A stretch of 64,000 nucleotides of DNA, taken from positions 90,827-154,826 of the IMG/VR virus record IMGVR_UViG_3300022719_000284; one strand, 5' to 3'. The DNA is from a virus (Duplodnaviria; Heunggongvirae; Uroviricota; Caudoviricetes). The notes under the pieces are model-generated. The model searched no databases and was not told the DNA's origin. It worked only from the letters and a program-made list of their open reading frames with translations. Numbering within the stretch: position 1 is the first letter of the stretch; every line of letters starts with the position of its first letter. Shown here one piece after another: positions 19,111-64,000 of the stretch. The translations under genes and the position numbers were made by a program.

Positions 19111-19602
19111 ATGAGCAGATTCGTATATCTAGTAGGACCTATCACTGGGACCAGTTGGGTGGAAACTACTAACTGGAGAGAATATGCCAGAGATAGATTC
19201 AATCCAGGGATTGTAGGTCTTTCCCCCCTACGTGGGAAAGATTACCTTCAGCATGAAACATCCCTTGCTGACTCCTATAAACAGCATGTTCTCAGCACCA
19301 CCAGGGGCATTATGGTACGAGACGAATTCGACTGCCGCAATGCGGATGTGATTCTCGCCAATTTTTTGGGTGCAACAAGGGTTTCCATCGGATCTGTCAT
19401 GGAAATCGCCTGGGCCTACATGTCCAAAAAACCAATCATTACTGTGATGGAGGCTGGAGGAGAAGACTTCACTGGTAAGAAGCTCTCTACCGGAAACTGT
19501 CACGAACACGCTATGCTGAACGAAGCTACTTCCTACAAAGTAGATACCCTAGACGCGGGAATTTTTGTAGTAAACTCAATACTGACTGGATATACCGAAT
19601 GA
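19111..19602 (+). CDS. nucleoside 2-deoxyribosyltransferase-like protein (163 aa)
   Basis: 'VYLVGPI' N-terminal motif and 'NADVILANF...GSVMEIAWAYMSKKPIITV' (catalytic-Glu region) resemble the Nuc_deoxyrib_tr family. 'aaagggga' RBS upstream; 4-nt overlap with ThyX. Confidence 0.45.
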   Translation: MSRFVYLVGPITGTSWVETTNWREYARDRFNPGIVGLSPLRGKDYLQHETSLADSYKQHVLSTTRGIMVRDEFDCRNADVILANFLGATRVSIGSVMEIAWAYMSKKPIITVMEAGGEDFTGKKLSTGNCHEHAMLNEATSYKVDTLDAGIFVVNSILTGYTE

Positions 19603-22693: not shown

Positions 22694-22730
22694 AAGGGAG
22701 GGGCTTAAATGCCCCTCCCTTAGGTTTTGG
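22694..22730 (+). terminator. rho-independent terminator: perfect 11-bp GC-rich stem (aagggaggggc / gcccctccctt), 6-nt loop, then 'aggttttgg'
   Basis: Read directly from the sequence, immediately after the OmpA-like gene stop. Confidence 0.6.
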
Positions 22731-22738
22731 AGACTACT

Positions 22739-23947: not shown

Positions 23948-24358
23948 ATGATGAAGAAAACCGATTCTGGGCCTTTGATAGAGACTGAGGCTTCTCCTGA
24001 GAAGAAACTGGAAGCTACTTCCGAAGAACAGGTTGATACCAGCGCGTGGGATAACATCATCGAGCTTATCCTAAATCTGGACCCTGATAAGTACGGTAAG
24101 CCTTTCTCCGATGTTGAGCTTCAGAAGATGTGTGAGATCGTCTCTGCGGGCAGGGGGAAATTTCCTAAGAAAGTCATCCCCTATGTGGAGCTTATGCGCA
24201 AGTTCCTTTTCGCAAACTATCAGCTCATCGCTTTGGCCGCTTTAGCTCACAAAACAGCCCAGGATAAATCCAAAGAAGAGAAACAGCTTGTCAAGCCGGC
24301 TAACTTCTCTGACCTGGGGAAGATAGAAGCCGAGAAGCTGAAGAATCAAGGTAGCTGA
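23948..24358 (+). CDS. hypothetical charged protein (136 aa)
   Basis: ORF between the two GT9-like paralogs; Lys/Glu-rich. Confidence 0.4.
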   Translation: MMKKTDSGPLIETEASPEKKLEATSEEQVDTSAWDNIIELILNLDPDKYGKPFSDVELQKMCEIVSAGRGKFPKKVIPYVELMRKFLFANYQLIALAALAHKTAQDKSKEEKQLVKPANFSDLGKIEAEKLKNQGS

Positions 24359-25494
24359 TGATGAACGTCACGAAGGTGCTAGTAACGAGATACGGCGGTG
24401 CCGGTGACATGATTATGATGGAACCGGTTTTAGAGGCATTGTACTACAAGTTCACGCCCGCAGAGATCCATCTTCGCACGCATTTCCACTACACAGATCT
24501 TCATGAGTTCCACCCCCTGATTCAAAATATTGTTCCGGGTGTTCTAACAGCCAATCCGCAAGAGATGGCCAAAGGCATTCTAAGCGACGAGAAGAAGCCT
24601 CAAGGGTTCGACTATTTCTATAACACAACCGGTAGCGTGGAAATGAACCGAGGCATACATGGTATAGATAGTTTTGCCTTTGCGTGCAGCGCAATCCCGT
24701 TCCGTAGAACCCCAGTGATGTATCTAGACCCCTCCGTCCCCGTAGAGTCCAGAGACATCGTGATCCATACCCCCAAAAAGACAGACAAGAGCCCACGAAA
24801 CAACGACTTCAGAACGTTCGGAGCGTCGGCTGTGACCAAGTTTTTAGACCAGCAAGGTATAAAGTATGATTCTATTGTCGATATTGGGTCTGAACCAGAG
24901 ACAGAAGACGCTCTACAAAATTTCGCCAGAACAATTGCCGGAGCCAAGCTGTTCATAGGCCCAGATTCGGCCGGGGCTCACATCGCCTCGGCGCTCAGCG
25001 TGCCAAGAATTGTAGCCGCATACACGGATTATTTCCCCGCAGGGATTAGAGCGTACCCAAACACTACAATCCCTGTTCGAGACAACAACATTGATGGCTT
25101 ACTGAGTGCCGTTGAAACAGCCTACACAAGCCTACACAAGCCTCTACCAGATCCTCTAGTATCCCTGCTCGTAAAATCACAGAAGTACGCTTACGGGAGA
25201 ACCTGCGGCCCCCAGGATAAGGCAAATCAGTCGGGTTACGATCTGATCCAAAGGCTCCAAATAACTTTTGAAGAAAACTGGAGACATGAGGTTTTTGATT
25301 TGATGGAAAGATTGTCCCCTAGGGGAATATTGTACTTGTACGAGAAGCACCCTAGGTTCGGTGGGACAGAAGATCCCATAATGATCGCTAAATATCTAAT
25401 CCAAACTTGTGGAATGGAAATTGTGGAATATTCTGCCACAGCAGACGAATATGGCCATTTTTTCGTCGAAGCTAGAAAGCTGGATCGTTCTTGA
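24358..25494 (+). CDS. GT9 (heptosyltransferase)-like glycosyltransferase, paralog of 22739..23884 (378 aa)
   Basis: 'KVLVTRYGGAGDMIMMEPVLEALYYKFTPAEIHL' is a GT9 N-terminal signature. C-terminus 'GMEIVEYSATADEYGHFFVEARKLD' is collinear with the paralog C-terminus. Confidence 0.5.
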   Translation: MMNVTKVLVTRYGGAGDMIMMEPVLEALYYKFTPAEIHLRTHFHYTDLHEFHPLIQNIVPGVLTANPQEMAKGILSDEKKPQGFDYFYNTTGSVEMNRGIHGIDSFAFACSAIPFRRTPVMYLDPSVPVESRDIVIHTPKKTDKSPRNNDFRTFGASAVTKFLDQQGIKYDSIVDIGSEPETEDALQNFARTIAGAKLFIGPDSAGAHIASALSVPRIVAAYTDYFPAGIRAYPNTTIPVRDNNIDGLLSAVETAYTSLHKPLPDPLVSLLVKSQKYAYGRTCGPQDKANQSGYDLIQRLQITFEENWRHEVFDLMERLSPRGILYLYEKHPRFGGTEDPIMIAKYLIQTCGMEIVEYSATADEYGHFFVEARKLDRS

Positions 25495-25529: not shown

Positions 25530-25772
25530 TTGGAAACTGAATTAACTGGACCTTTTTCTAAATCTCGACAATGGCTTTTGAATTACCTATCAACAGCTAA
25601 ATTTAGAAATGAAATTATACAAGGGTCATTAAAAGCTGATTGGTCTGAGGTGGAGCACGCACGTGCCGCCTATTTACTGGGATGTCTTTGGGGGCGTTTG
25701 AGACAAGTAGATTCTTCCCTTGAGAATGCTACTGAATATGGAGCATTAGTAATAGAGGAGCTAAATGAATAA
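25530..25772 (+). CDS. hypothetical protein (80 aa)
   Basis: ORF with 4-nt overlap to the downstream oxygenase gene. Confidence 0.3.
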   Translation: METELTGPFSKSRQWLLNYLSTAKFRNEIIQGSLKADWSEVEHARAAYLLGCLWGRLRQVDSSLENATEYGALVIEELNE

Positions 25773-26404
25773 TGCAAGACTTCATAGTTTTAGACAATTG
25801 GCTTCCAATAGGGCAAGCAGAGGAAATTGCATCCAAAATTAGCAGAATACAAAATTGGGATGTTAGAATATGTGACAAAGACGGGGGCCCAAGAGTTGTA
25901 AAAAATGAGAGTCTCAAAAGTTTGGGAATAACAGCAGAGGAGTATGCTAAAGACTATCCAGAAAGTTTGGCCCAATTAGCCCGTGGCGGAACAATGGCTT
26001 ACTTGTTCTTTGTCAAACATCTTTCTGAATTTGACCCTATCCTTCTAAATTGGTTTAATACAGAATTCTTGTCTACGGCTAATATGATTACTGAACAAGA
26101 GAATAACTATACAGAAGAGCCCCAGGTAACTATGTATTCATCTGGGTGCTTTCTTGGGCAACATAGTGATGGAGTCGGCTCTAGGCAGGTTGCCTTTATT
26201 GCAAATTTCACACGCAATTGGCAACCTGATTTTGGTGGGTGTCTTACTATTCTTACACAAGGCAAGTGGCAGGTAATACCTCCAAAATTCAATTCGATTG
26301 TTTTTATGAATGTTAGATCAGCAAATTGTCACTATGTTAGTCAAGTTTCGAGCTGGGTACAAAACAACAGAACCGCCATTACAGGGTGGATAGGTAGAAG
26401 ATAA
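25772..26404 (+). CDS. 2-oxoglutarate/Fe(II)-dependent oxygenase superfamily protein (210 aa), possibly prolyl/lysyl-hydroxylase-like
   Basis: 'GQHSDGVGSRQVAFIANF...GGCLTIL...NCHYVSQV' fits the HxD...H facial triad in a double-stranded beta-helix context. Confidence 0.55.
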   Translation: MQDFIVLDNWLPIGQAEEIASKISRIQNWDVRICDKDGGPRVVKNESLKSLGITAEEYAKDYPESLAQLARGGTMAYLFFVKHLSEFDPILLNWFNTEFLSTANMITEQENNYTEEPQVTMYSSGCFLGQHSDGVGSRQVAFIANFTRNWQPDFGGCLTILTQGKWQVIPPKFNSIVFMNVRSANCHYVSQVSSWVQNNRTAITGWIGRR

Positions 26405-28641: not shown

Positions 28642-31185
28642 TTGAGCCTGCACTGGGAGAGTTTTGTGTCGGATACCCAGAAGTGCCCCCACTGTGGAAG
28701 TGATTCACTTCAAAAACGTGGACTTACCAGATCAGAAGAACCAAAGCAGCAATATGCTTGCAATGAATGTGGACGCTGGTCTTTAATATCTATAGTTGAA
28801 TTAAAAAGTGGTCCTGAATTCTTTCTTGATAAAAAGAAAGTAGCTGAGTTAGAACGTAAAGAAAGATATTTCATAACTAGCTCACAAAATAACACTCATA
28901 TAGACAGAAATTTCTGGAAAGCCATCAAACACTATACTAAGGAAAATGGCTCAGAACTTCTAATCCTCCCTATTCGTTACAAGAATCCTACATCTTACCT
29001 TCAGCCGCAAGATGATGACGATGCTGTATGGTGGCCTGAAGAAGTTCTAGATTATCTTGTTGAAAATAAGTTAAAAATACACCCAGAACTGTGGATTATG
29101 GGGAACATGAGAATCCAAGCCACAATGGTAAACCCCCTATCTGGTTTGGAGGGCATGAGCCAGTATGCTTCTGCTATCTACGGTCACGGGCAGCTTCAGA
29201 TGAAGACAGTCCCTACTCCGCAGAATGCTCTTCCTAAGATACTTCACACTACTGGATCGTGTAGTGTTAAAAATTATAGTAAAACCAAAGCAGGAGTTAA
29301 AGGTGAGTTTCACCACTCCAAAGCCGGACTAGTTGTGGAAAAGAAAGGAAAGAAATTCCACCTTAGACAAGTCATTTGGGATGGGGAATGCTTTTACGAT
29401 TTAGATAAAAAGTACACCGCCAATGGAGTTACAAGAAACCACAGAATAGATGCCTTAGTAACCGGTGACGAACACGTTCTATTTAACGATCCGGAAGTAA
29501 AAGCTGCTACATACACTGACAATGGTTCTATAGCTAACACATTAAAACCGAAAGTTATAGTCCGTCATGATGTTTTTGACGGATACAGTATATCTCACCA
29601 TCACAGAAACAATCCAGTTACTCAATACATAAAATGGAGAGAAAACATAAACAAAGTTGAAGATGAGTTGCAAGCCACTATAAACTTCATAGAAGAAACC
29701 ACCCCCCAAAATGCAACAAACATAATAGTTTCTTCAAACCATAATGAGCATCTGTATAGATGGTTAAGAGAAGTAGATTGGAAAGCAGAGCCATGGAATG
29801 CCAAAATATATCACTGGTTTTGGTATAATATGCTAAATGAAGCTGAATTTGGGGAGTCTGGAGCTTTTACTTTCGACCCATTCGCGTATTGGGCAGAACA
29901 GAACATGGACTCTAATTGCCCCATCAAATTCCTGGGGCGCGATGAGTCTTTCGTGGTAAACAAAATTGAGTTGTCTTTGCACGGAGACCTGGGTCCAAAT
30001 GGTAGCAGGGGTTCTGCGGTCAACCTGAACAAAATTGGTATTCGGTCTGTAATCGGGCATTGCCTTACAGGAGACCACGACGTACTAACGAGATCTGGAT
30101 GGAAAAGCATAGCCGATGTTCCTTCTGGAAGTGAAATTCTTACTACAAAAGATGGTCATAACATTTGGTCTAAAACAACAGAAAAACAAGAATATCTATA
30201 TAGCGGAAAATTAGTTAACTTAAACCATTTAGGGCAGACTGTTACGCCAAATCACAGGATGGCTATGTCGGACGGATCTTTAGTTCCTGTGTGTGAAGCT
30301 ATTATGACAAGGAAAGCTAACGAGGTACCTATTTCTGCCGCTCCTTGCTCTGAAGGTATAATCTCTATACCAGAAATGCCTTTGCGAAGACTTGTAGCTG
30401 CGTGTGCTGATGGCAGCTTTTACAAAAATAGTCTGTCTTTCAACCTAAAAAAGAATCGTAAGCACGAAAGGCTGAAGTTCTTGTTCGGTGATTCCCTTCG
30501 TGACAAAGGATCTGTCAAAGGCAACGGAGCAATTCGAAGAACAGTATCTATGGGTTCTGAACCCTACAAAGAAATCATCAAGTATATAAATCCAACCACA
30601 GAATGTAAAAGACTACCTCATTGGTTTATAGACTTATCGGAAGAATGCCGATCAATAGTCATTGACGAACTAGTATACTGGGATGGCACAGGAAGAGATT
30701 GCGAAGCAGGAAAACAGTTCTCGACTTCAAAAGAGGACGAAGCTAATATAGTTGCAGCTTTGTGTACTTTACAAGGATACCGTACAATCTTCTTAGAAAG
30801 GGTAGACCACGGACGCACAGAGTATTTGGTTACTTGGACACAAGGCGAGCCAGCACACAGCACTGATCAAGAGCATGACGAAGCGCGTATAGGAGCTTGG
30901 CAGGCAAATACTATAAATGTCGAGAATGAGGCCGTATATTGTTTCACAGTTCCCGAAACCCATTGTTTTTGGGTAAGGGACAAGAAAAAGGGAAAGGTCT
31001 CGTTAACTGGAAATTCCCACAGCCCTTGTATAGAAAAGGGCGTCGTGCAAGTAGGAACCAGCTCCTACCTGAAGCTGGAGTACAACCCAGGTCCCAGCTC
31101 GTGGATGAATTCTCATTGTGTTGTATATAAGAATGGAAAACGAGCCCTACTCAACGTACTCGACGGCGGAGAATGGCGCGGGTAG
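28642..31185 (+). CDS. N-terminal Zn-ribbon plus calcineurin-like metallophosphoesterase (Mre11/SbcD-like motifs), interrupted by an intein (847 aa precursor)
   Basis: 'CPHCGS...CNECG' Zn-ribbon. Phosphoesterase motifs 'VTGDEHV', 'SSNHNEH', 'LHGDLG', and 'IGH|...|SHS' (GHxH split by the intein). Confidence 0.65.
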   Translation: MSLHWESFVSDTQKCPHCGSDSLQKRGLTRSEEPKQQYACNECGRWSLISIVELKSGPEFFLDKKKVAELERKERYFITSSQNNTHIDRNFWKAIKHYTKENGSELLILPIRYKNPTSYLQPQDDDDAVWWPEEVLDYLVENKLKIHPELWIMGNMRIQATMVNPLSGLEGMSQYASAIYGHGQLQMKTVPTPQNALPKILHTTGSCSVKNYSKTKAGVKGEFHHSKAGLVVEKKGKKFHLRQVIWDGECFYDLDKKYTANGVTRNHRIDALVTGDEHVLFNDPEVKAATYTDNGSIANTLKPKVIVRHDVFDGYSISHHHRNNPVTQYIKWRENINKVEDELQATINFIEETTPQNATNIIVSSNHNEHLYRWLREVDWKAEPWNAKIYHWFWYNMLNEAEFGESGAFTFDPFAYWAEQNMDSNCPIKFLGRDESFVVNKIELSLHGDLGPNGSRGSAVNLNKIGIRSVIGHCLTGDHDVLTRSGWKSIADVPSGSEILTTKDGHNIWSKTTEKQEYLYSGKLVNLNHLGQTVTPNHRMAMSDGSLVPVCEAIMTRKANEVPISAAPCSEGIISIPEMPLRRLVAACADGSFYKNSLSFNLKKNRKHERLKFLFGDSLRDKGSVKGNGAIRRTVSMGSEPYKEIIKYINPTTECKRLPHWFIDLSEECRSIVIDELVYWDGTGRDCEAGKQFSTSKEDEANIVAALCTLQGYRTIFLERVDHGRTEYLVTWTQGEPAHSTDQEHDEARIGAWQANTINVENEAVYCFTVPETHCFWVRDKKKGKVSLTGNSHSPCIEKGVVQVGTSSYLKLEYNPGPSSWMNSHCVVYKNGKRALLNVLDGGEWRG
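30061..31014 (+). mobile_element. intein (about 318 aa) inserted in the GHxH phosphoesterase motif; likely contains a homing-endonuclease domain
   Basis: Block A 'CLTGDHDVLT'. Block B 'GQTVTPNHRM'. Block F 'VYCFTVPETHCFWV'. Block G '...LTGN' followed by a +1 Ser. The flanks rejoin as 'SVIGH-SHSPC', i.e. GHSH. Confidence 0.65.
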
Positions 31186-31330
31186 CGGCACCGAGAAAAC
31201 CCTCCGACCCATGAATCGAAATATCCAACCCCAGTTGCTCTTTCGGTGGGTTAGACTAAAGGCTGTATAGAGCCGGGAACTCTCAGTAAACTCGCCCTGG
31301 TCGGGAACTCCTTTGTGAGTTGCACCCCGT

Positions 31331-31359
31331 GAGGCCCGGAAGTCTGTCTTCCGGGCCTC
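31331..31359 (+). terminator. perfect 12-bp GC-rich hairpin (gaggcccggaag / cttccgggcctc, 5-nt loop) followed by 'atttg'; terminator-like or regulatory
   Basis: Read from the sequence, 145 nt after the phosphoesterase stop and 22 nt before the lipoprotein start. The U-tract is weak. Confidence 0.4.
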
Positions 31360-31381
31360 ATTTGCAAGAGATGGAGAATGA

Positions 31382-31699
31382 ATGTTAGAAAGAGTTACTG
31401 TAGCTGGATTTGCTCTGATTCTTTTTCTTTCTGGATGTGCTTCCCCGTTGGAATGCTACAAAATTGAATCAGCAGATACATGGGTATCTGGTGGGCCCCA
31501 AAGTTGGGAATCTGATTCAGAGTCCAATAACCGACGAGGAAGAACAACAGATCAAACTAGGTCTAATGGGGATGGTTGGAGTGTTGACGTTGGCTTGAAC
31601 TTACATTGGGGTGCAAATTCCTGTGACTGGGTTTATGTAGATGAAGAAAAAAGCCCACCTCCGGGAAACCAGAAGCCTGGGAGATCTACTCCAGATTAG
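31382..31699 (+). CDS. small lipoprotein (105 aa)
   Basis: Signal plus lipobox 'LILFLSG-C' ('tggagaatgaATG' RBS). Converges on the SPFH gene with a 14-nt overlap. Confidence 0.5.
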   Translation: MLERVTVAGFALILFLSGCASPLECYKIESADTWVSGGPQSWESDSESNNRRGRTTDQTRSNGDGWSVDVGLNLHWGANSCDWVYVDEEKSPPPGNQKPGRSTPD

Positions 31700-33576: not shown

Positions 33577-33733
33577 AGAAGCTTCCCAAGACAGCCCATT
33601 TATCGTCTTGGATCTCCTCCAAAGTCATTCCTGAGGCATTTAGACTCTTTTGTACTTGAATAGGATCAAACCCCTCATAACCGACCCAAAGTAAAGTTTT
33701 ATCATTTTTAATTTTAGTTATCATCAATGCCAT
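33539..33733 (-). CDS. small hypothetical protein (64 aa)
   Basis: TGATG-coupled to the HNH gene (overlap at 33733). Confidence 0.3.
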   Translation of the reverse strand: MALMITKIKNDKTLLWVGYEGFDPIQVQKSLNASGMTLEEIQDDKWAVLGSFYGKQNIQESNDG

Positions 33734-34191
33734 TAAATTTTCTCCACATTAGGGTATTTGTTTCTTATATGATCTTCTATAATTTTTCTAGTGTAATGGG
33801 CCATAGACATACCTCTATCTCTGGCTATTAATTGAAGAGCATCTCTATAGGTTTTATTTAGTTTTAAACCTATTCCTATTTCCCTGTCGGGATTTGCTTG
33901 AGCCCTATCTCTTTCAAGGAGACCGCTTTTCACAACTAATTGGGCCAACTCCATGCATCTTTTTTGGGATGAACCATCAATAAACATTTGTTGAACTGAG
34001 CTTCTTACTTCCCCAACTCTTTTAGGGTTTCTCATCATTCTAGCGATAACGTGCATATCTTGGTGACACCCGGAGCAAAGACTAACTAAATTAGCAGGAT
34101 CATCCGATCCTCCAAGAGACTTTGGTATTTTATGGTGTTTATTCACAAAATCCAAAGGCTTCTCAGATTCACAAATGTAACATCTAAACAT
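33733..34191 (-). CDS. HNH endonuclease (152 aa)
   Basis: 'CYICESEKPLDFVNKHHKIPKSLGGSDDPANLVSLCSGCHQDMH' is an HNH/Zn-finger signature. Confidence 0.75.
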   Translation of the reverse strand: MFRCYICESEKPLDFVNKHHKIPKSLGGSDDPANLVSLCSGCHQDMHVIARMMRNPKRVGEVRSSVQQMFIDGSSQKRCMELAQLVVKSGLLERDRAQANPDREIGIGLKLNKTYRDALQLIARDRGMSMAHYTRKIIEDHIRNKYPNVEKI

Positions 34192-46038: not shown

Positions 46039-49613
<3,575 letters not shown>

Positions 49614-49614
<1 letters not shown>

Positions 49615-50177
49615 TAGATTCTCCAGTTAAGACGAGCAGCTATGCTCCCTAATCTAATCCATGTTATTTCTTCTGTTTTTGAGGAAAATCTAATCTTGTT
49701 AAAATTAAGTTCAATACCTTCAAATTCGTCAGAGCCGGAATAAGTCTTACCCTCTCCCGGATTCACATAGGCTATTGTTATATGAGGCTGATATTCAGGA
49801 AATTTATCTTCATTTTCTAAATTGTCTTTTAGTTTGTTGTGTATCCTATGTAGGTCTTTTGATTTGACATCTATTTTTACCACATCATAATCTTCATTCT
49901 CAAAAAGAGATATTTTCCCTAGAGTAGCTTTTATAGGGCTTTCACCTTGAAGAATTTTTCTCACAGGATCTGGATCTTCATCTACCAATCCGTAAAGAAC
50001 TGTGCAATGAATTGTATCTTCTCGACCCATAGAATCGTCTTCCGGGTCTTCATAAAGCTTGCTATCAGGTATATTTTTCTTGCCCCATTCTATAATATTT
50101 TTAGCGACATTCTCCGGTAAATTAACCTGAGTTGATGCATAGCTATAGTCTGCTGTCACGTCCCAGTTAAATACCAT
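49614..50177 (-). CDS. 2H phosphoesterase superfamily protein (LigT / 2',3'-cyclic phosphodiesterase-like; 187 aa)
   Basis: Two H-x-T/S-x motifs ('IHCTVLYG' and 'PHITIAYV') at the spacing typical of the 2H fold. Confidence 0.55.
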
Positions 50178-50533
50178 TATCCTTTCCTTTTGTTAGGAAA
50201 TACGTAATCCATATTGCTTTTTTTAGTAGACATACCAAGTGTTTTCAAAATCTTTTTTCTGGTGCCGATATGAGGAGCACGTTCCCCTTGAGAAATTAGT
50301 TTTACTGTTCTCCATTCTAAACCTGATTTCCTGCTAATCTCTCTAAGAGATATGTTAGCTTTAACAGCCATCAACCTAACTCTGTTTGGATAGGGCGGCC
50401 GACCTAATCTCTTACAGTGAGGGCAAGGATCACTTTTACTAAAAACAGGAACATACCACCTTAAGCAATCAAAACACTCCTTACCGTATTCTACGGTAGA
50501 AATATCCATGTGTATTCGTCTAGAACCGAACAT
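50177..50533 (-). CDS. Zn-ribbon plus helix-turn-helix (XRE/Cro-like) DNA-binding protein (118 aa)
   Basis: 'CFDCLRW...CPHCKR' followed by 'ISLREISRKSGLEWRTVKLISQGERAPHIGTRKKILKTLG'. Confidence 0.5.
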   Translation of the reverse strand: MFGSRRIHMDISTVEYGKECFDCLRWYVPVFSKSDPCPHCKRLGRPPYPNRVRLMAVKANISLREISRKSGLEWRTVKLISQGERAPHIGTRKKILKTLGMSTKKSNMDYVFPNKRKG

Positions 50534-50616
50534 AAATCCCCTCCCTTTCTCTTAAAAGACTCGCCCTTTCTCTTAAAAGATAAGACTAAGGCATTCATAA
50601 CTGGGGTACTCTTTTT

Positions 50617-51636
50617 CTAAAATGTAGTTCTAGGGGGTTGTGGGGTACCCGAGGTAGCAGCGGACACAGCCCCAGCTATAGCTGTTGCGGTTCTAGAGAC
50701 TATGCGCTGGCTAGCAGCATTTACAGATGCTTTGGAAGCACTTGCGATGGCTCTGGGAGGGACTTGTCCTGTTATTAGTAAATCTTGGATAGGGGAAAAA
50801 GTTTCACTTCTTCTATTAGAATAGGTAAAACCTACTCTTTCCATGTATTTCTGCTTCAACGGATGACCTGCCTCTCTTCCGTCTACTCTACTTTGATTTG
50901 TAATAGCTACAGCACGCCCAAGCTCCGGGGTGGACTTGTATACTGTGAAAGAAGCGGACCAATTGTTAACCTGAGCATGATTGGAAGCTTGATCAGAAAA
51001 AGAAATTCCTTGAGGTTGCCAAAATCCCCATAAAGTAATAGACGGGAAAATCAAGCTATTGTACTTTATGTAACATAAATTTGCTCTACCGTCGTCAAGA
51101 ACTTTTACCTCGTCCACTAAAGCCATAAATTCGTAAAAATTTACTAACCCTTCTGGAATAGTGCCTTGGAAATCAAGCAAGCTTCTTGTAGGAAGAATAT
51201 TTCCGGATTGGAAATTTATAGTAAGAACAGGTTCATCAAAATAGGTTTTTCGCTCATTATCGTTCCAAACATGTAGAACAGTCCCTGCCTTGGTTTTCTG
51301 CTCTTGAGAACGTTGGGCCATCGTCCACGATACGTCTGAAGGATTAACTCTAAATTTAATAGCTTTAGGCTCTCTAAAAAGGGTTTCTTCTTCCCCATTT
51401 TCATTTTGAACAGTAACGTTGCCTCCACCTTGCTGCCAAGACAAGCAACCCATTTCCCATTCAAAATCATTTCTATTGTCTCTAAGCCCCGAAGTAGGAA
51501 GAAGCCCCCGACCGAAACCCAAAATATTGCCAGCAAGAGCAAAAGTTGGGTTGTCTACGGTCTGGGGGCTTCTGAGGATCCCAGGGCCGTTTTTACGATC
51601 TACCACAGATGTGATAATATCTGCAACACCGGCCAT
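50617..51636 (-). CDS. structural hypothetical protein (339 aa)
   Basis: ORF; no motif recognised. Confidence 0.45.
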   Translation of the reverse strand: MAGVADIITSVVDRKNGPGILRSPQTVDNPTFALAGNILGFGRGLLPTSGLRDNRNDFEWEMGCLSWQQGGGNVTVQNENGEEETLFREPKAIKFRVNPSDVSWTMAQRSQEQKTKAGTVLHVWNDNERKTYFDEPVLTINFQSGNILPTRSLLDFQGTIPEGLVNFYEFMALVDEVKVLDDGRANLCYIKYNSLIFPSITLWGFWQPQGISFSDQASNHAQVNNWSASFTVYKSTPELGRAVAITNQSRVDGREAGHPLKQKYMERVGFTYSNRRSETFSPIQDLLITGQVPPRAIASASKASVNAASQRIVSRTATAIAGAVSAATSGTPQPPRTTF

Positions 51637-51650
51637 ATGTTCTCCTAATA

Positions 51651-52412
51651 CTAGCTCACAACTTGATTAGCTCTCGCAGCAGCTACTTGCTCTGGATCTT
51701 CCGGCTGCTCTTCGTCGTTAGCTACAATATCTGGATCCACTGTTGCGTTCTGTGCAGCCAAAATCTGGAAGGCAAAACGCTTTAGTGGTCCGTCATTCTC
51801 TGCTTGAGATATAATGTAGGTAAGATCATGACTAGTTAATTCATTTTCCATAATTCGGAATTCGCCAACAGCTTCTCTCTCAGAAAGATCCTTTGATTCA
51901 ACTCTCAAAAGAGTTGCCTTAACTCGATTATTAACCGGGTCTGTCTGATGTCCCTCAGGGGGACCCATAGGATTGTTAACATTAGCTTCGCTAGTGTACT
52001 GAGATTCCATCTGTAGAACTCTTTCACTTGCTTCAGCTCTGTTAGAGAAGTCAGAAAGATTTAGACGCTCCTGCTCTTCATTACCTTCCGGGGTATTCAA
52101 AATCCTTTGAGCTTCAGAAGGATCAACTAATTGAATAACACCCTTAGAAAGGAACTGTCTAAGATCGTTGCTATCTCGAATAATAGCAGGGGACAAAGTA
52201 TCTGTCAGACATATTGGAATCCAAGTTCGTGGGATAGGACGAGGAACAGCTTTCCCGTTTGGGGTTACGAAAGTAAGAACAATGTGACCCATAGGGCGAG
52301 ATGTGTTCTTTACATATACTTTCTTCCCATTGTTTAATAGATCATCAAGATCAGGTTTAGACATTTTATTACTCCTTAATGTCGGCATGCAAAGCTTTAA
52401 AACAAAACTCAA
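51651..52412 (-). CDS. hypothetical protein (253 aa)
   Basis: ORF; acidic C-terminus. Confidence 0.4.
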   Translation of the reverse strand: MSFVLKLCMPTLRSNKMSKPDLDDLLNNGKKVYVKNTSRPMGHIVLTFVTPNGKAVPRPIPRTWIPICLTDTLSPAIIRDSNDLRQFLSKGVIQLVDPSEAQRILNTPEGNEEQERLNLSDFSNRAEASERVLQMESQYTSEANVNNPMGPPEGHQTDPVNNRVKATLLRVESKDLSEREAVGEFRIMENELTSHDLTYIISQAENDGPLKRFAFQILAAQNATVDPDIVANDEEQPEDPEQVAAARANQVVS

Positions 52413-53004
52413 ATACCGATCGGTTGGTCAATTTAACAAGCGATCCGCTTCTTCTATCGCGCTTAACTAAGGTTGTTAGACCTTTTAACAACTGTACTTT
52501 TGTTAGTTCGTTCCAGACCCATAATAGATCCAATTCTTCATGCGCTAACCCCAAAGAACTTGGGACATCTGGAATAGTTACTTTGTCAAGAAGGCTACGA
52601 GCCCTAAAAAGTGGTAAACCAAAAAGCTCAATTTGAATTTCCTTCTCTGGAAAATGAAAAACTTTTGTGATTGAAGATTTAGGCATAAAAGGTATACTGT
52701 CTAAAGCTTTCTTGGATACTGGTTCAAGGTTCGTGATTAGTATATTCTGCGGATCACCGTCAATAACGTTAACACCATCAGAAGGCGAACCCGTATAAAC
52801 ACATTTCTTTTCATTTCCTCTATGAAAATGGTCCACAATCTCAGACAAATCTATGGACTTAGGCTTCCCATCGCTACCGACCAATTTAGGGTAACTGGGG
52901 CTTAAGTACCCTGCTGGGATTCCGTTAATGGTTTTTCGTCCCTCATCGCTTTCTGACGGGTCGAATATAACGGAATCTAGGTTCATTTTAACAGTTTCTA
53001 ACAT
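52369..53004 (-). CDS. hypothetical protein (211 aa)
   Basis: ORF; overlaps the downstream gene by 44 nt. Confidence 0.4.
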   Translation of the reverse strand: MLETVKMNLDSVIFDPSESDEGRKTINGIPAGYLSPSYPKLVGSDGKPKSIDLSEIVDHFHRGNEKKCVYTGSPSDGVNVIDGDPQNILITNLEPVSKKALDSIPFMPKSSITKVFHFPEKEIQIELFGLPLFRARSLLDKVTIPDVPSSLGLAHEELDLLWVWNELTKVQLLKGLTTLVKRDRRSGSLVKLTNRSVFEFCFKALHADIKE

Positions 53005-53074
53005 AACAAAATTTCCTATAATTTGAGATTCTATAACTTATTGAAAAGATTAAACAATTTCAAACTACAACCAA

Positions 53075-55921
53075 TTACGAAAGCTCTTCTTTAACCTTTT
53101 TCCAAACTACATCAACAGTATTAGCAGCCATACAGCTATTCAAAGTGTTTTTAGGATAGTCTTCTTGTGGAAGTGTAGTAGTTTCGTGAGAAACTAAATA
53201 AGGGCATGGAGGTTTGGGGTGAGCCGACATACTATTGTATTCTCGATAGCATGGTTGGCATTCCTTAGTAGGACCTTCATTGCCCATATTTCTAAACCAC
53301 GTAGAACCATTAACTAAATTGATATTTTGATCATACCCAGATCCACAAGGATGAGTAGATCCCCATACGATAATTGATCTCTTTCCCACAGCTTGAGAAG
53401 TATGGTTAAAAACAGAATCTCCTCCGATAAACAAAGCAGAGAATTTCTGTACAGCCGCAGCATGTTTAATTGATGGTGTATTTAACTTTATAGCACCAGG
53501 GATAGGTTTTTCGTTTTCCGACCCAATTTGTACAACTTCATAACCAAGTTCTTCTTTAATTTTTTGGACTAAGGACTCATACCAATTAAAGGGCCAATTC
53601 TTGAGAGGAGACCATCCCGCTGTAGTGTGTATAACTACCTTACCAGAGCCATGATTAGCTCCGTAATCAAGATGTTCTTGTGTCAATCCTATGCTGAGAT
53701 CCATAGAGGCAGCAACTCCAGCTTGCTCACAAAAGAAGGCAGCCAAGTGTTGTCTCATGGGTGCATCAGGATAACCCTGATGCATAGGGTACTGAAAAAG
53801 GACACTCTTTTCTGGGTTTTCCAGCTCCTGTGTAGCCTCCATTATTTTTTGATAATTATTCTCCGGTATAGCTACTACCTCATCTACAAATGGATTGTTT
53901 GAAATAGCATCCACAGAAGAAGGATGACAGATATATCGTACAAAATACCCCTGTTCTTTTAGACCTTTACAGGCAGCAGTAGACATGATAATGTCCCCCA
54001 GAGCACCAGGGCGACATACTTGTACAATTTTATTGTTAGGTTTTGGGGGTGTATTTGAGCCAGGAAACCTTAGGGCTCTTAGTTGGGCCAATCTAGATTC
54101 CCAAGATTTATCTGGGGCACCTATTTTTTCTGCCGCAAGTTCTCCATATGAAATGGCCTTTTCTATGTCCCCCAAATGCTCCCAACACCAACTGATCAAA
54201 CGCCAAGGCTGATCTTTATAGGCTCCAGTGTTCAAAAACATCAAAGTATTAGGTAGAGGGTTAGAGGCTGCATGTACAGCCCACGAAATTGCTTGCTTAA
54301 ACTTGTCTAAATCTCCGCTTTGTCTTCCTTCCTCGTATTTCATTCTAGCAATAGCCATGTATGGCTCGGCCCAATGGGAATTGGTTGCTATAGCTTGACA
54401 GAAGGCCCTGAAAGCTTGATCTTTTTGGTTTAAACTATGATGACAAAAGCCCTTATACATCCATGCCCAGAATCTTTCATCGTGCCATCCAAGATTTTTT
54501 ATAAGATATCTATCGTATCTTTCTAAGGCTTCTTCGTGGCGCCCAGACTCTCTTAACCCATTCCCAAGATAGAACAAGGTTCTACCTTCTCCATCGAACT
54601 CACCTGGGCATAGAGGGCAAGGTTGAGGCCCCTCGGCCTCGGCTTCTAATAGAATTTCAATATTTCTAGTCGAAGCATCTTTAGGTTTGGGTAAATGTGT
54701 TAACGTAATATCATCACATTTCAACTTCAGTGGACCATAACCGCCCAATTGAACATATTCATGACATTTATCGTGAAAGTGCGGTTTAAACACATTTCCA
54801 CGCCCATCATCTATAGACTCATTTTTCCATAATCTTAAATGGAAAAAAGTATCGCCACCGTATATTAGCCGCCAATCTTGAGGATTGTTTGGAAATTCTT
54901 CTAAAAGAGAAAGGATTTTCTCTGGAGAATCTGGAGAAAGAACATCATCGCAGTCCATCCAGGCAACATGGGTTCCTTCGCATGCCGTAATAGCTTCATT
55001 TTTAGCTCTAGCAAAGTTATTATCCCAATAACCATCTATAATTTTTGTACGAATGCCTGTTCTATTTCCAAATTCTTTGATTATTTTTGAAGTTCTATCT
55101 GTAGAGTTGTTAAGATAAACTACTACTTCCCAAGCTAAAGGAGCAATGCTGTTTAACATTCTACCAATAACTTCTTCTTCGTTACAAGAAATGACAGCAA
55201 AAGAAATTCTAATATCCTCTGCTAATCTTAACTGCCAATCTATTTGGCCAAGTTCTGACTGTTCCCATTCGTCAAAAACTCTAAATCCTTCTTTCTTGCA
55301 TAAGAGCTTAAAGGAATCCTTAGAAAATATGATGGGATGTACTTGATAATGTTCGTCTGTTAGATGAATAGGTAGACCCCTAGCCCCGACAACAGGAGTT
55401 CTAATATATACTACTCCCTTTTCTGTCAGAAGACTTTTTATCTTCTTCATCGCTTGCACAGGGTCAGAGAAATGCTCAATACAGTGAACCAAAGTTATCA
55501 AGTCAAACTTTTGGTCACCAAAATCATGTTCGAGAAAGTTTCCGACAACCATCGGAACGCCAAGCTCTTCCCCGTAAAATTCTGCCTCATCGCATCCATC
55601 TATACCTAGCTGAGTATCCACTCCTAAATCCTTGAAACATTTAAGGAAATAAGGATACTTTGATCCTATGTCTAGGACGCTTTTAGGTTTGTGATGCCAT
55701 GTTAATCGCTCTGCTAAATCTTTATTCAGTAGCTTAGCAATATCGTTCATAGCTTCACGGCCAGAGGATGGCTGAAGCTCAGATTCCCACATAAAGTTAG
55801 GAGGGGGGAATTGAGACCAAAGTCCACAATTATTGCAAGATAAGTAAGGAGTTCGACCAATACCGGGGACTTCAGTAGAAGTGAAATCTACACCCCCACA
55901 GACGGGACAAATGCTCTGCAT
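53075..55921 (-). CDS. multidomain modification enzyme (948 aa): Zn-ribbon, class-I SAM methyltransferase, GT2 (GT-A) glycosyltransferase, TPR repeats, GT9-like domain
   Basis: 'CPVCGG...CNNCG'. MTase motif I 'VLDIGSKYP' and 'DLITLVHCIEH'. GT2 'ISFAVISCNEEE...DCDDVLSP'. TPR-like helices. C-terminal 'IVQVCRPGALGDIIMSTAACKGL' is a GT9 signature. Confidence 0.65.
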   Translation of the reverse strand: MQSICPVCGGVDFTSTEVPGIGRTPYLSCNNCGLWSQFPPPNFMWESELQPSSGREAMNDIAKLLNKDLAERLTWHHKPKSVLDIGSKYPYFLKCFKDLGVDTQLGIDGCDEAEFYGEELGVPMVVGNFLEHDFGDQKFDLITLVHCIEHFSDPVQAMKKIKSLLTEKGVVYIRTPVVGARGLPIHLTDEHYQVHPIIFSKDSFKLLCKKEGFRVFDEWEQSELGQIDWQLRLAEDIRISFAVISCNEEEVIGRMLNSIAPLAWEVVVYLNNSTDRTSKIIKEFGNRTGIRTKIIDGYWDNNFARAKNEAITACEGTHVAWMDCDDVLSPDSPEKILSLLEEFPNNPQDWRLIYGGDTFFHLRLWKNESIDDGRGNVFKPHFHDKCHEYVQLGGYGPLKLKCDDITLTHLPKPKDASTRNIEILLEAEAEGPQPCPLCPGEFDGEGRTLFYLGNGLRESGRHEEALERYDRYLIKNLGWHDERFWAWMYKGFCHHSLNQKDQAFRAFCQAIATNSHWAEPYMAIARMKYEEGRQSGDLDKFKQAISWAVHAASNPLPNTLMFLNTGAYKDQPWRLISWCWEHLGDIEKAISYGELAAEKIGAPDKSWESRLAQLRALRFPGSNTPPKPNNKIVQVCRPGALGDIIMSTAACKGLKEQGYFVRYICHPSSVDAISNNPFVDEVVAIPENNYQKIMEATQELENPEKSVLFQYPMHQGYPDAPMRQHLAAFFCEQAGVAASMDLSIGLTQEHLDYGANHGSGKVVIHTTAGWSPLKNWPFNWYESLVQKIKEELGYEVVQIGSENEKPIPGAIKLNTPSIKHAAAVQKFSALFIGGDSVFNHTSQAVGKRSIIVWGSTHPCGSGYDQNINLVNGSTWFRNMGNEGPTKECQPCYREYNSMSAHPKPPCPYLVSHETTTLPQEDYPKNTLNSCMAANTVDVVWKKVKEELS

Positions 55922-56518: not shown

Positions 56519-58393
56519 TTACGAATCTATACCAAAATCTACAACCAAAATTTGCCCCTCGTTAAACTGAACGCCAGGATCAATTTCACGAGCCTGGATG
56601 GCAATTTCATGTGATTGATTGTTATCTAAAGATCCCATCCAGAAACATATGGAAGAATCGTTTTGTGTCGCTAAAGCATCTTTATTACCAGCTCCAGCTC
56701 CTAAGACTCCTAAGGTTAAAGCACTTCCTGTTGGGTTCAATCTAATTCTTTGTTCGTAACTCCAAGCACCATCAGCGTCTGCTTGGTAATTTCCTTGAAT
56801 TAAAATCAAAATAGTAGAAGTTGTTAGATTTGGTCTGGATACAAGATTGTTGAAATTTATAGAAAATACAGTGGAAAATGAACTACTCAATAGAAGGTTG
56901 GAAGTAGTTGATTGTAACACAAATCCATTTACTACACGGGGTGTACCATCCGTACTTAATACACTTGATACTTGTGACGCCCAATTTAAAGCGTCTGCTC
57001 CCCCTATATCATGTCGCGAAGCATGAGCATGAATATCCATGTCATCAGCAGAATTCTTTTGGAACCTAGTATTAGGATCTAGATCCACTTTTCTATTAGG
57101 GCGGAACGTAATTGAAGGACCACCATCTGGAACATGCTGAAGGAAAAAAGAGTTATCCGGTGGCTTACAAAGAAGCCATTGATCAAACCCCCTATCTGAG
57201 AACACCATATGAGAATGCTGTGGTGCAGAAAATCCGCTATCAAGTGTCAGGGTTGTGTCATTATCGGCATTGTTATCCACCCTTAACTCATCGCCTTGAA
57301 CTCTCGCTCCCCCAATAACGTGAAGTCTCTGCGCTGGGGAATTGGTTCCTATACCAACATTTCCTGAGCCCTGAATAAACAAGGAAGAGGTAGGAGCATT
57401 TCCTTGAACCGTTATTGGGGTATTTCCAGTAACCTGATTAGATATAGAGAAAACACCAGCAGAACTTTTTCCAACTCTCCATACTGGGGTTCCTCTATCA
57501 GCAAAATCTATCATACTTTGCTGAGCAGTAGTGTCTCCAGAATTTATTTCAATTATTAGTGCCGAGTTAACGGAATTTTCAAAAGTTCTACTACCATCAA
57601 CTAGCACATAATGGAGATGGTCATCATCCCCTAAACCACTTAGTTGGTCGTGTACTGAAACGGGCCCAGTGGGACCAGTGGGTCCGGTAGTACCGGCTCC
57701 GGTGGCCCCCGTAGGCCCACCAGCGGGGCCCACAGAACCGGTTTCTCCCTGCTTTCCAGTCTCCCCTTGCTGGCCTTGATTACCAGTTACACCCTGAATT
57801 CCTTGATTTCCTTGGGGCCCTTGAGGCCCTGTTATTCCAGTTGAACCTGGTACACCTTGAGGTCCTGTTGGGCCTGTCCCCCCAGTAGCGCCACTAGTAG
57901 CACCTGTAGGGCCAGTTATCCCTATTCCTGTTGGACCAATAGAACCTGTTAAACCAACACCTCCCTGAGACCCTGTTGGGCCGGAATTACCTTTAACACC
58001 TTGAATCCCAGTTGGTCCTGTGCTACCCTTAGGTCCTGTTAATCCTATTCCTTGGGGACCGGGAGCACCAGTTACCCCTGTTGGACCTGTTATAGATTTA
58101 CCTTGGATACCAAGGGGACCTTGAGGCCCCTGTAAACCAGTGGGTCCTGTAGAACCTTTAAGACCAACCCCTCCTGTTGGTCCAGTAGAACCAGTAGAAC
58201 CAGTAGAACCGCTTGGACCTGGAACAGCTACAGGAGTAATACCAGTAGGACCAGTAGGGCCAGTAGGACCAACGCCAATAGGCGCTGTTGCACCCTGAGG
58301 CCCAGCAGGCCCAGTTATCCCTGTACCGGTGGAGCCAGTTTCCCCAGTGGGTCCGGTAGGTCCTGTGAATCCTGTAGGTCCAATTTGAGACAT
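56519..58393 (-). CDS. collagen-like fibre protein (624 aa)
   Basis: N-terminal Gly-X-Thr/Pro/Gln tract of about 240 aa (nt about 57665..58385), followed by '[15 protein letters not shown]' and a beta-rich C-terminal domain. Confidence 0.8.
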
Positions 58394-58421
58394 TTATAAT
58401 TTCCTCTAGGAAAGTATAATC

Positions 58422-60682
<2,261 letters not shown>

Positions 60683-60683
<1 letters not shown>

Positions 60684-61015
60684 TAGTTACCTTCTCTCGC
60701 TTCTCTAACATCCCAAGCTGCAACATTCTGGATTACCTCTACCTTGAACCCAAATAAAGCTGATACTGCATAACAATGAGCTAGAAATTGCTTAGTATTT
60801 AACCAAGGCTGTTTAGGAACAGAAAAAGCTTCTTTAGAATGTCTAAGCATGTTAGTTGGACCGCTAACAATTACACTAGGTCTGATAGGGTGGGCGTCAG
60901 CAGTCCTGAGTGCTGATCCAAGATTACCTACTACTTCGCTAACTCTAGTAGCTTTAACAGGCAGGTGTACAACAACCATGTACCGTTTTGATGGTTCCAT
61001 TAGTAAATATTCCAT
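60683..61015 (-). CDS. hypothetical protein (110 aa)
   Basis: ATGA-coupled ORF. Confidence 0.35.
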
Positions 61016-61040
61016 TTACTAGTTAAGTTAATAACTCTTA

Positions 61041-64000
<2,960 letters not shown>

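Follow-up and report, generated by a model that had tools for sequence, protein, structure and literature searches.

What does a small predicted phosphodiesterase do among the virion genes of an uncultured jumbo phage? The window (the whole 64-kb stretch of DNA that was analysed) carries such a gene next to a putative regulator and a tail-fibre gene, and a first-pass annotation had proposed that its product acts against nucleotide immune signals or in RNA repair. The features of the locus are collected in Table 1.

Table 1. Features of the 2H locus, in window coordinates.
Feature	Position	Strand	Basis or remark
2H phosphoesterase gene	49614..50177	-	187 aa; stand-alone form of polyvalent-protein 2H domain, Acb1-related
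First catalytic motif, H57-C58-T59, then L61-Y62-G63	50001..50009	-	read from sequence
Second catalytic motif, H132-I133-T134, inside segment F126..137	49776..49784	-	read from sequence
C-terminal tail, residues 176-187, conserved W185; candidate flexible lid	49617..49652	-	
N-terminal segment, residues 1-11, conserved W5	50145..50177	-	
Zn-ribbon + predicted XRE-type HTH protein, 118 aa	50177..50533	-	ORF; alignment; AF2
Zinc-ribbon motif, C20-x2-C23 ... C37-P-H-C40	50414..50476	-	alignment
Five-helix HTH domain, residues 50-111	50201..50386	-	AF2
Two exact 17-bp direct repeats (CCCTTTCTCTTAAAAGA, + strand), 21-bp period	50543..50580	.	possible operator/promoter element
Collagen-repeat tail-fibre gene, 1191 aa, GTG start	46039..49614	-	Pfam Collagen 3.2e-83; PHROG tail fibre families
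Conserved upstream block: ORFs of 339, 253 and 211 aa + 948-aa enzyme	50617..55921	-	
Further collagen / tail-collar fibre genes	56519-63689		

We aligned the 2H protein with its homologues to see how far the catalytic residues are kept. H57, T59 and G63 around the first motif and H132, T134 and Y137 around the second were invariant in all 39 sequences, while position 62 was Y in 35, F in three and W in one. The first motif aligned with Acb1 HTTIVY and the second, which reads HITIAY, with Acb1 YPDYRPHITLSY. Both hallmarks of the 2H superfamily, two H-x-T/S motifs and a duplicated alpha+beta lobe fold, were found. The initial description of a small 2H enzyme with two HxT motifs was therefore borne out: judged from its sequence, the 187-aa protein is a catalytically intact 2H phosphodiesterase, with a fold confidently predicted as 2H. 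In the predicted model, pLDDT fell below 50 at residues 1-11 and 181-187. The C-terminal Trp motif (LNW185) was limited to the 18 closest homologues and absent from 21 of the 39 family members, and tabulation of the family showed that the N-terminal W5 motif (h-x-W) co-occurs with it. These flexible, Trp-bearing termini are candidate lids.

Several searches linked the protein to Acb1. It passed the gathering cut-off of the Pfam Acb1 model (PF23474; 41 bits against 27, E 2.1e-10), a score that ties with the 41 bits of the generic 2_5_RNA_ligase2 model (PF13563), and the Acb1 model matched 38 of the 39 family members at E <= 0.01. When the PDB was searched with the single protein, FBB1 Acb1 was the sole match below E 0.1 (0.0068); with the family profile, the best match (E 2.8e-5) was PDE-9 of Burkholderia phage BCSR5 (PDB 9Q2G/9Q2Y), an enzyme deposited as Acb1. 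Profile-profile alignment (hhalign) against six canonical Acb1 sequences gave a probability of 96.9% and E 1.4e-10. Single-sequence hhalign covered 111 columns of E. coli ThpR (probability 78%) and 76 columns of T4 Acb1 (62%). The structural comparison with anti-CBASS enzymes and LigT that had been suggested at the outset upheld the 2H fold but did not separate Acb1-like from LigT-like.

Residue by residue, the protein shares with Acb1 (T4 gp57B and Erwinia phage FBB1 Acb1; PDB 7T26/7T27; Hobbs et al. 2022, PMC9117128) the 2H fold with its HxT/HxT tetrad, HxTxxY on both motifs and an aromatic-P-x-Y-x-P-H context. The Acb1 aromatics compared were the base-stacking Y12, W74 and F107 of T4 Acb1 and its C-terminal lid residue W147. 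F92 aligned with W74 and F126 with F107. The flexible LNW185 tail, although not part of the aligned core, has some likeness to the L(D/E)W of the Acb1 lid. Six Acb1-invariant residues (S50, R51, R95, G103, A104 and D107 in FBB1 numbering) were not conserved in the hhalign alignment, the 2H protein having G63, L64, I112, E121, N122 and K125 at these positions; the Acb1-invariant E139 and E142 fall beyond the aligned core. The two also differ in overall identity (~18% in structural alignment, 29% over the 79-column profile-aligned core) and in length, the 2H protein (187 aa) being ~35 residues longer than Acb1 (152 aa) and having more sequence ahead of its first motif. In the explanation favoured below, the phage-specific family to which the 187-aa protein belongs is a sister of canonical Acb1.

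A different reading is RNA end healing of the ThpR/LigT type, as in E. coli ThpR, PH0099 and drCPDase. The enzyme would act on tRNA or mRNA cut by metal-independent ribonucleases of the host (anticodon nucleases and toxin RNases), opening the resulting 2',3'-cyclic phosphate ends so that an RNA ligase can reseal them, and counter-defence would then work by repair. The 111-column ThpR alignment, which takes in the N-terminal strand-helix, argues for this. The ThpR equivalog TIGR02258 was also the top NCBIfam match; it nevertheless fell far short of its cut-off (31.1 bits against 65.7), and LigT_PEase (PF02834) likewise failed (18.5 against 23.3). In PH0099 an Arg lies five residues after the second His (HITLGR), and E. 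coli ThpR, whose alignment runs up to HITLL, has an Arg at the same +5 position; the phage protein instead has a Tyr there (Y137), as does Acb1.

The genes expected around a repair enzyme were not detected in the regions scanned. Comparison of window ORFs with Pfam, PHROGs or the two together, which took in 64 kb of the ~210-kb genome, revealed neither an RNA ligase (Rnl1, Rnl2 or RtcB) nor a polynucleotide kinase. The syntenic loci of relatives likewise yielded no RNA ligase, kinase or RtcB, and none of the 16 multidomain 2H family members scanned was fused to an RNA ligase or kinase. The first-pass remark that ligase and kinase partners are missing is thus confirmed for the window and extends to these loci. 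In one family member (P0115) a LigD 3'-phosphoesterase domain is fused beside the 2H domain, a pairing that would also fit nucleic-acid end healing. According to a review of jumbo phages (PMC7824862), the 2H enzymes of such phages serve in 2',3'-cyclic phosphate processing. Against this, the polyvalent-protein 2H class discussed below was never seen associated with RNA ligases (Iyer et al. 2017, PMC5512222). On these grounds we consider end healing unlikely.

The family extends well beyond this phage. Its profile matched ~6,660 cluster representatives (clusters at 50% identity), and about half of the best 150 matches (E <= 1e-51) were whole domains inside phage proteins of 1,000-7,768 aa. Homology to the domains in these giant proteins reached ~190-220 bits, and the top BFVD structural match was also a domain of a giant phage protein, 39% identical. 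An LPD38 polyvalent-protein domain was present in two of the five giant proteins scanned (P0113 and P0114); Tunturi_5 gp321 combines SprT, 2H, ART-PolyVal and GNAT domains, and a further protein (P0168) is a fusion of portal and 2H. More distant 2H homologues were found in nucleotide-metabolism or small-ORF regions, and one of them lies among small ORFs ~6 kb from an Acb5-family gene.

Iyer, Burroughs, Anand, de Souza & Aravind (2017; PMC5512222) predicted that the polyvalent-protein 2H class degrades either signalling or defence nucleotides or RNA. With their domains our protein has in common full-length homology, a setting among morphogenesis genes and the lack of an RNA ligase partner. It differs in being a separate protein of 187 aa, in the genes to which it is coupled (a fibre gene and a Zn-ribbon/HTH gene specific to the clade, not portal or MuF) and in its paired terminal Trp motifs, which were found only in its closest relatives. 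The 187-aa protein is a solo counterpart of the phage polyvalent-protein 2H domains.

One of the two roles proposed in that study would make it an offensive RNase of the Usb1 type, one that cuts or trims host RNA (e.g. crRNA, tRNA or regulatory RNA) and leaves a 2',3'-cyclic phosphate. The proposal was drawn from portal and MuF fusions that parallel those of RNase-like PBECR domains (PMC5512222), and portal fusions do exist in the present family. However, identity to Usb1 was just 8-9%, and the sequence signatures favour Acb1 over Usb1. Pfam detected no RNA-binding domain, and the predicted structure left no large extension unmodelled. Such an RNase role therefore appears decidedly improbable.

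We also characterised the protein encoded upstream. Its pairing with the 2H enzyme, claimed at the outset, stood up to analysis: C20, C23, C37 and C40 were invariant in the seven sequences aligned, as were HTH residues, AF2 returned a five-helix HTH, and the TAA stop of the HTH gene overlaps the ATG of the 2H gene by one base. The AF2 model, built with four sequences as input alignment, placed helices at residues 51-58, 63-70, 74-81, 89-98 and 105-111 with block-mean pLDDT of ~82-94 over residues 51-110; confidence was low over the zinc-ribbon motif. Matches to Pfam HTH_26 and HTH_24 (E 0.06-0.08) were below their cut-offs, those to PuuR, aMBF1 and BcepMu gp16 were sub-threshold, and a PDB sequence search gave nothing significant, with weak matches to Prophage Lp1 protein 11 and HipB. 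Two homologues carry JGI names of the XRE-family or lambda-repressor-like kind. Archaeal MBF1-like aMBF1 has the same architecture, a zinc ribbon at the N-terminus and then a Cro/C1-type HTH, but all matches of the 118-aa protein to aMBF1 and XRE regulators were far below threshold and its family (29 proteins at >= 50% identity) is confined to this phage clade. It is probably a DNA-binding regulator and not an enzymatic partner. Two observations weakened the idea that the 2H enzyme has it as an obligate partner in function: the most divergent of its homologues (P0095) stands at the head of a primase/helicase module without a 2H gene, and 2H homologues outside the clade occur without the Zn-ribbon/HTH protein.

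The two 17-bp repeats lie in the 83 bp directly preceding the HTH start and were the sole matches in the window at <= 3 mismatches. A conserved operator was rejected because the repeat, though unique in the window, is not kept in relatives. Two relatives (L003 and L007) have different short repeats at the equivalent spot. A scan of 45-57 kb for sigma-70 promoters and terminators was uninformative because the counts equalled the shuffled expectation.

Gene order around the pair was then compared with that in relatives. Relatives with 55-73% identical 2H proteins have the HTH-2H pair at the equivalent syntenic position, and the upstream block occurs in the same order in nine loci (L001-L008 and L020). 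The 253-aa ORF of this block is called as 237 aa in relatives. Within the block, the 948-aa protein has a methyltransferase-GT2-TPR-GT9 arrangement in Pfam; PHROG and Pfam searches of the neighbours at 50617-53004 assigned no informative family (one function-less PHROG and a few sub-threshold matches), and the 339-aa product gave nothing significant in a PDB sequence search. The fibre beside the 2H gene is the variable neighbour, ranging from 805 to 1542 aa in relatives and absent in L020. The 2H gene had been described as lying between fibre genes. This is accurate in that one fibre gene abuts it and more follow beyond the upstream block, but three unassigned ORFs and the 948-aa methyltransferase/glycosyltransferase intervene.

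Two other early suggestions did not survive this comparison. The gene is not a moron, because the synteny of the HTH-2H pair is conserved across relatives while the fibre varies. Nor is its placement atypical. T4 acb1 (57B) directly follows the tail-fibre chaperone gene 57A and so adjoins tail-fibre/head genes too (57A-57B-ipI), much as the 2H gene lies beside a fibre gene. In Pseudomonas phage MR15 Acb1 is fused to portal, in a 595-kb phage the gene sits between terminase and portal, and in Tunturi_5 the domain is part of a polyvalent protein whose gene has connector genes on one side and tail genes on the other. Placement in the structural module is the rule for 2H genes of this kind.

The conserved, coupled position would also be explained if the protein had a role tied to the fibre, whether as part of the virion, in assembly or as an enzyme that modifies fibres. 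Consistent with this are the conserved synteny with fibre and glycosyltransferase genes, the one-base overlaps on both sides (the GTG start of the fibre gene overlaps the TAG stop of the 2H gene in the same way) and the related 2H domains that are built into virion proteins, as portal fusions or structural-module polyvalent proteins. On the other hand, L020 retains the HTH-2H pair without a downstream fibre gene, the distant homologues stand in nucleotide-metabolism or small-ORF regions, every 2H enzyme so far characterised, to our knowledge, has nucleotides or RNA as its substrate, and the invariant catalytic tetrad points to an enzyme and not a scaffold. A fibre-tied role is thus extremely improbable.

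We favour the explanation that the gene encodes a metal-independent 2H phosphodiesterase that acts on small nucleotide immune signals and is made with the virion genes, and we judge its chances to be evenly balanced. By analogy with the 2H superfamily and the Acb1 structures, H57/T59 and H132/T134 would form an HxT/HxT tetrad over the scissile phosphate, and attack by the ribose 2'-OH would yield a 2',3'-cyclic phosphate that is then hydrolysed. F92 and F126 would occupy the positions of the Acb1 residues that stack on two bases, and the disordered termini bearing W5 and W185 may close over the ligand as lids. The likeliest substrates would be CBASS cyclic di- or tri-nucleotides, type III CRISPR cyclic oligoadenylates or 2'-5'-linked species, whose degradation would blunt abortive-infection signalling. 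The 2H gene appears to be co-transcribed and translationally coupled with the Zn-ribbon/XRE-HTH gene upstream and the tail-fibre gene downstream, so its product would be made with the late, virion-assembly genes. As a whole, the anti-signalling interpretation of the first-pass annotation is partly supported, by the intact 2H enzyme, the Acb1 threshold passed, the Acb1-type best PDB matches and the lack of repair partners in the loci scanned, and loses its arguments from placement and from moron status. The combination of a stand-alone polyvalent-type 2H domain with kinship to Acb1 makes it plausible that this is a fairly ordinary counter-defence gene of an uncultured jumbo phage.

In a bolder version the solo 2H protein would be a phosphodiesterase that is pre-loaded, being associated with the virion or produced very late, and translational coupling would hold its amount at a fixed ratio to the fibre. 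The paired Trp motifs would form a double lid specific for an immune nucleotide not yet listed, and the Zn-ribbon/HTH protein would be its dedicated regulator. We hold this to be very unlikely.

Other phage 2H phosphodiesterases have been surveyed by Doherty et al. (2025; 10.1101/2025.08.21.671373). Many of the enzymes came from huge uncultured phages, substrate range differed by structural group, and two structural groups cleaved none of the nucleotide messengers tested. The nearest tested relative of our protein is PDE-11 (Maribacter phage Colly_1 gp180; tblastn 31% identity, E 6e-9), which was also its third-best BFVD structural match.

Taken in isolation the finding is incremental, as the class was predicted in 2017 (PMC5512222) and validated in principle in 2022 (PMC9117128). 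If degradation of immune nucleotides is true, phages able to counter CBASS or type III CRISPR signalling would gain an environmental jumbo-phage lineage, and a large family (~6,660 clusters; about half of the best 150 matches are domains of far bigger phage proteins, some demonstrably polyvalent) would be tied to the proven Acb1 paradigm. The family is also a sensible place to look for enzymes with which to probe signalling nucleotides that are still unknown, since certain phage 2H groups leave all the known signals uncleaved.

We read the open reading frames directly from the sequence. The TAA stop of the gene for a Zn-ribbon/HTH protein (Zn-HTH) and the ATG start of the gene for the 2H phosphoesterase (2H protein) overlap by one base, as do the TAG stop of the 2H gene and the GTG start of a collagen-repeat fibre gene. 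Since the two reading frames fill the stretch given in the first-pass annotation and the 2H protein has both HxT motifs, its coordinates and description of the pair are correct. The fibre gene is opposed by a PV-repeat-rich antisense ORF, most likely a by-product of GXY-repeat DNA, and GC content rises to 0.53 around it.

Features of the window discussed in the text
Feature	Position	Strand	Details
Zn-HTH ORF	50177..50533	-	118 aa; TAA stop
2H ORF	49614..50177	-	187 aa; ATG start, TAG stop
Collagen-repeat ORF	46039..49614	-	1191 aa; GTG start
First catalytic motif, H57-C-T59	50009-50001	-	2H protein
Second catalytic motif, H132-I-T134	49784-49776	-	2H protein
N-terminal segment of 2H protein	50145-50177		residues 1-11; h-x-W; disordered in model
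C-terminal segment of 2H protein	49617-49652		residues 176-187; LNW; disordered in model
Direct repeats, CCCTTTCTCTTAAAAGA	50543-50580		two exact 17-bp copies, 21-bp period; in 83-bp gap directly upstream of Zn-HTH start codon
Antisense ORF	47339-49384	+	681 aa
Collagen-repeat fibre genes	46039-49614, 56519-58393, 58422-60683, 61041-63689		at least four
Methyltransferase/glycosyltransferase genes	22727-23884, 24358-25494	+	
Methyltransferase/glycosyltransferase genes	53075-55921	-	
2OG-Fe(II) oxygenase	25772-26404	+	Pfam 2OG-FeII_Oxy_3/4
Nucleoside 2-deoxyribosyltransferase-like / SLOG ORF	19111-19602	+	sub-threshold matches
Thymidylate synthase gene	19599-20519		
Convergent strand switch	~31185-31686		long ORFs + up to 31185, - from 31686
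HNH endonuclease	33733-34191		

The 2H gene and its product are real. We found 67 homologues, one of them identical (its cluster includes a 210,369-bp contig); the contigs of others measure 78-736 kb, a size range that indicates jumbo or huge phages. With only 26-28% identity between the window's DNA polymerase and its counterparts in cultured jumbo phages, the lineage is distant and uncultured. Across an alignment of 39 homologues, G51, H57, T59, G63, F92, V99, K101, H132, T134 and Y137 were invariant, and the AlphaFold model built on it had a mean pLDDT of 88.6, with disorder at residues 1-11 and 181-187 only.

We used sequence and profile searches to place the protein between Acb1, the phage anti-CBASS 2H enzyme, and the RNA 2',3'-cyclic phosphodiesterases ThpR/LigT. 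Pfam gave matches to Acb1 (PF23474, E 2.1e-10, 41 bits vs a cut-off of 27) and to the generic 2_5_RNA_ligase2 (PF13563, 2.5e-10, 41 bits), and PHROG 755 was matched at 1.4e-16; the thresholds of TIGR02258 (ThpR, 31 bits vs 65.7) and PF02834 (LigT, 18.5 vs 23.3) were not reached. In a single-protein search of the PDB, Acb1 of Erwinia phage FBB1 was the sole match below E 0.1 (E 0.0068), while the family profile retrieved, in order, BCSR5 Acb1 (2.8e-5), PH0099 (6.7e-4) and FBB1 Acb1 (8.9e-4). We also aligned canonical Acb1 sequences from six phages, T4 and FBB1 among them; this alignment matched the family profile across the inter-motif core at 96.9% probability (E 1.4e-10). Compared one sequence at a time, ThpR of E. 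coli (78%, 1.8e-5, 111 columns) and T4 Acb1 (62%, 7.4e-5, 76 columns) matched about equally well.

Motif detail likewise points to the Acb1 side. Both motifs share the HxTxxY extension with Acb1, whereas PH0099 has HITLGR at the second, and the context F126-P-E-Y-x-P-H agrees with (Y/F)-(P/D)-D-Y-x-P-H of Acb1. F92 and F126 align with T4 Acb1 W74 and F107, which stack on both bases of 3'3'-cGAMP (Hobbs et al. 2022, PMC9117128). However, S50, R51, R95, G103, A104 and D107, invariant in canonical Acb1, are not conserved in the 2H family, and E139/E142 of canonical Acb1 fall outside the aligned core. The sequence evidence leans towards Acb1, and we conclude that the 2H protein belongs to a sister family of Acb1, being neither canonical Acb1 nor ThpR.

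The first-pass annotation had proposed a fold comparison with anti-CBASS phosphodiesterases and LigT. The model was compared, but the fold left the choice between an Acb1-like and a LigT-like family undecided. Penguinpox cGAMP phosphodiesterase (11.8), the BCSR5 enzyme deposited as Acb1 (11.4) and FBB1 Acb1 (11.3) ranked lower, the latter two being shorter chains (126-136 aligned residues) with the highest sequence identity of the comparison, 18%. In BFVD the best structural match was a domain, 39% identical, within a giant protein from an uncultured phage.

An N-terminal h-x-W (W5) and a C-terminal IAAxLNW (W185) are both carried by the 18 closest of the 39 aligned sequences; the remaining 21 have neither. 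In Acb1 a C-terminal Trp-bearing lid closes over the ligand (Hobbs et al. 2022, PMC9117128), and in PDE-9 of Burkholderia phage BCSR5 the lid is N-terminal (Doherty et al., 10.1101/2025.08.21.671373). A candidate lid at one or both termini is therefore a reasonable inference for the 2H protein.

The position among fibre genes had been called atypical, but it is typical of the kind, since canonical acb1 genes also lie beside structural genes. In T4, acb1 (57B) overlaps gene 57A, which encodes the tail-fibre chaperone, and is flanked by tail gene 3 and head protein gene ipI, and FBB1, phage 31, VAC13 and avDM12 have the same arrangement. Relatives with 2H proteins 55-73% identical share one gene order: collagen fibre, 180 aa, a ~940-aa methyltransferase-GT2-TPR-GT9 enzyme, ~211, ~237 and ~339-365 aa, Zn-HTH, 2H. 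Sporadic insertion of the pair was rejected because of this identical order. The gene after 2H varies (805, 1145, 1191 or 1542 aa) and is absent in one relative (L020). Homologues at 40-45% identity were found in other settings: one is flanked by SbcCD-like genes and ribonucleotide reductase, another, in a 595-kb phage, has the large terminase on one side and a T4-type portal on the other, and a third belongs to a run of small ORFs with a NUDIX gene nearby (locus L010). The last locus carries an Acb5-family gene (PF26761, L010 1778-2155) ~6 kb upstream of the 2H homologue, and in this phage the run may represent a cluster of anti-defence genes.

In Pseudomonas phage MR15, gp81 (L013 37-1839) is a portal fused to canonical Acb1 (E 1.9e-43), and in P0168 a portal fragment is fused to a 2H domain of the family studied here; such phosphodiesterases can thus be built into the virion itself. 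A fibre- or virion-linked role for the stand-alone 2H protein, coupled as its gene is to a fibre gene, seems to us very improbable.

For the family at large, our profile search covered 1.84 billion cluster representatives and matched 6,660 proteins at E <= 0.001 (2,667 at E <= 1e-30); in about half of the best 150 matches the whole domain lies within a protein of 1,000-7,768 aa. Two of five scanned large proteins carry 'large polyvalent protein associated domain 38'. Tunturiibacter phage Tunturi_5 gp321 (1362 aa; L021 3435-7523) combines SprT-like, 2H, ART-PolyVal and GNAT domains between a head-tail connector and a minor tail protein, and looks like a polyvalent protein within that module; it is annotated as 'MutT/NUDIX hydrolase', and its domain scan gave no NUDIX match at E <= 0.001. 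Of the fusions seen, P0115 alone (871 aa; LigD 3'-phosphoesterase, 2H and DUF192) gives a hint of nucleic-acid end processing. That hint and the ThpR match bear on healing of RNA 2',3'-cyclic-phosphate ends by the 2H protein. As the first-pass annotation had noted for ligase and kinase, no RNA-repair partner was seen: RNA ligase, kinase and RtcB were not found among the scanned window ORFs, which include DNA polymerase, thymidylate synthase, Pif1 helicase and glycosyltransferases. We consider end healing unlikely.

The Zn-HTH protein has invariant cysteines (C20, C23, C37, C40). AF2 modelled a five-helix HTH (residues 51-111) with confidence and the zinc ribbon poorly; curated HTH models gave matches below threshold only. 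Even a profile search yielded only 29 proteins, each with at least 50% identity, which limits the family to this phage clade. Its most divergent member, P0095 (231 aa, L019 859-1554), heads a primase-polymerase / D5-type helicase / DnaG/Toprim module; its contig is 19.7 kb long, and no 2H gene lies nearby. Rather than a co-enzyme, we see in Zn-HTH a putative DNA-binding regulator that is incidentally the first gene of the coupled unit. The CCCTTTCTCTTAAAAGA repeats upstream have no other match within the window and are absent in relatives; in two of these, L003 and L007, the equivalent position is occupied by other short repeats (GGCGATGG-like). A promoter/terminator scan was uninformative.

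Elsewhere in the window, an oxygenase that we take to be of the prolyl-4-hydroxylase type and several methyltransferases/glycosyltransferases, in a phage with collagen-repeat fibres, suggest hydroxylation and glycosylation of the collagen-like fibres. The end of the SLOG-like ORF overlaps the start of the thymidylate synthase gene, and P0120 has a weak match of the same type N-terminal to its 2H domain. GC skew changes sign at the convergent strand switch.

2H domains of phages, stand-alone or in polyvalent proteins, have been described with MuF or portal fusions and never alongside RNA ligases, with predicted roles as RNases or degraders of defence nucleotides (Iyer et al. 2017, PMC5512222). 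The former role would correspond to a Usb1-like RNase with host RNA as its target, which we regard as rather improbable for the 2H protein. Substrates of phage 2H enzymes differ sharply between structural groups, two of which cleave none of the signals tested; the nearest relative assayed was PDE-11, Maribacter phage Colly_1 gp180 (Doherty et al., 10.1101/2025.08.21.671373). The earlier guess of a counter-defence enzyme was reasonable, its placement argument wrong. The likeliest reading, to which we give about even chances, is a metal-independent phosphodiesterase which, co-produced with the late structural genes, would destroy small nucleotide immune signals. The family belongs to the class of Iyer et al. 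2017 (PMC5512222), and the gene adds a member to an already predicted kind.
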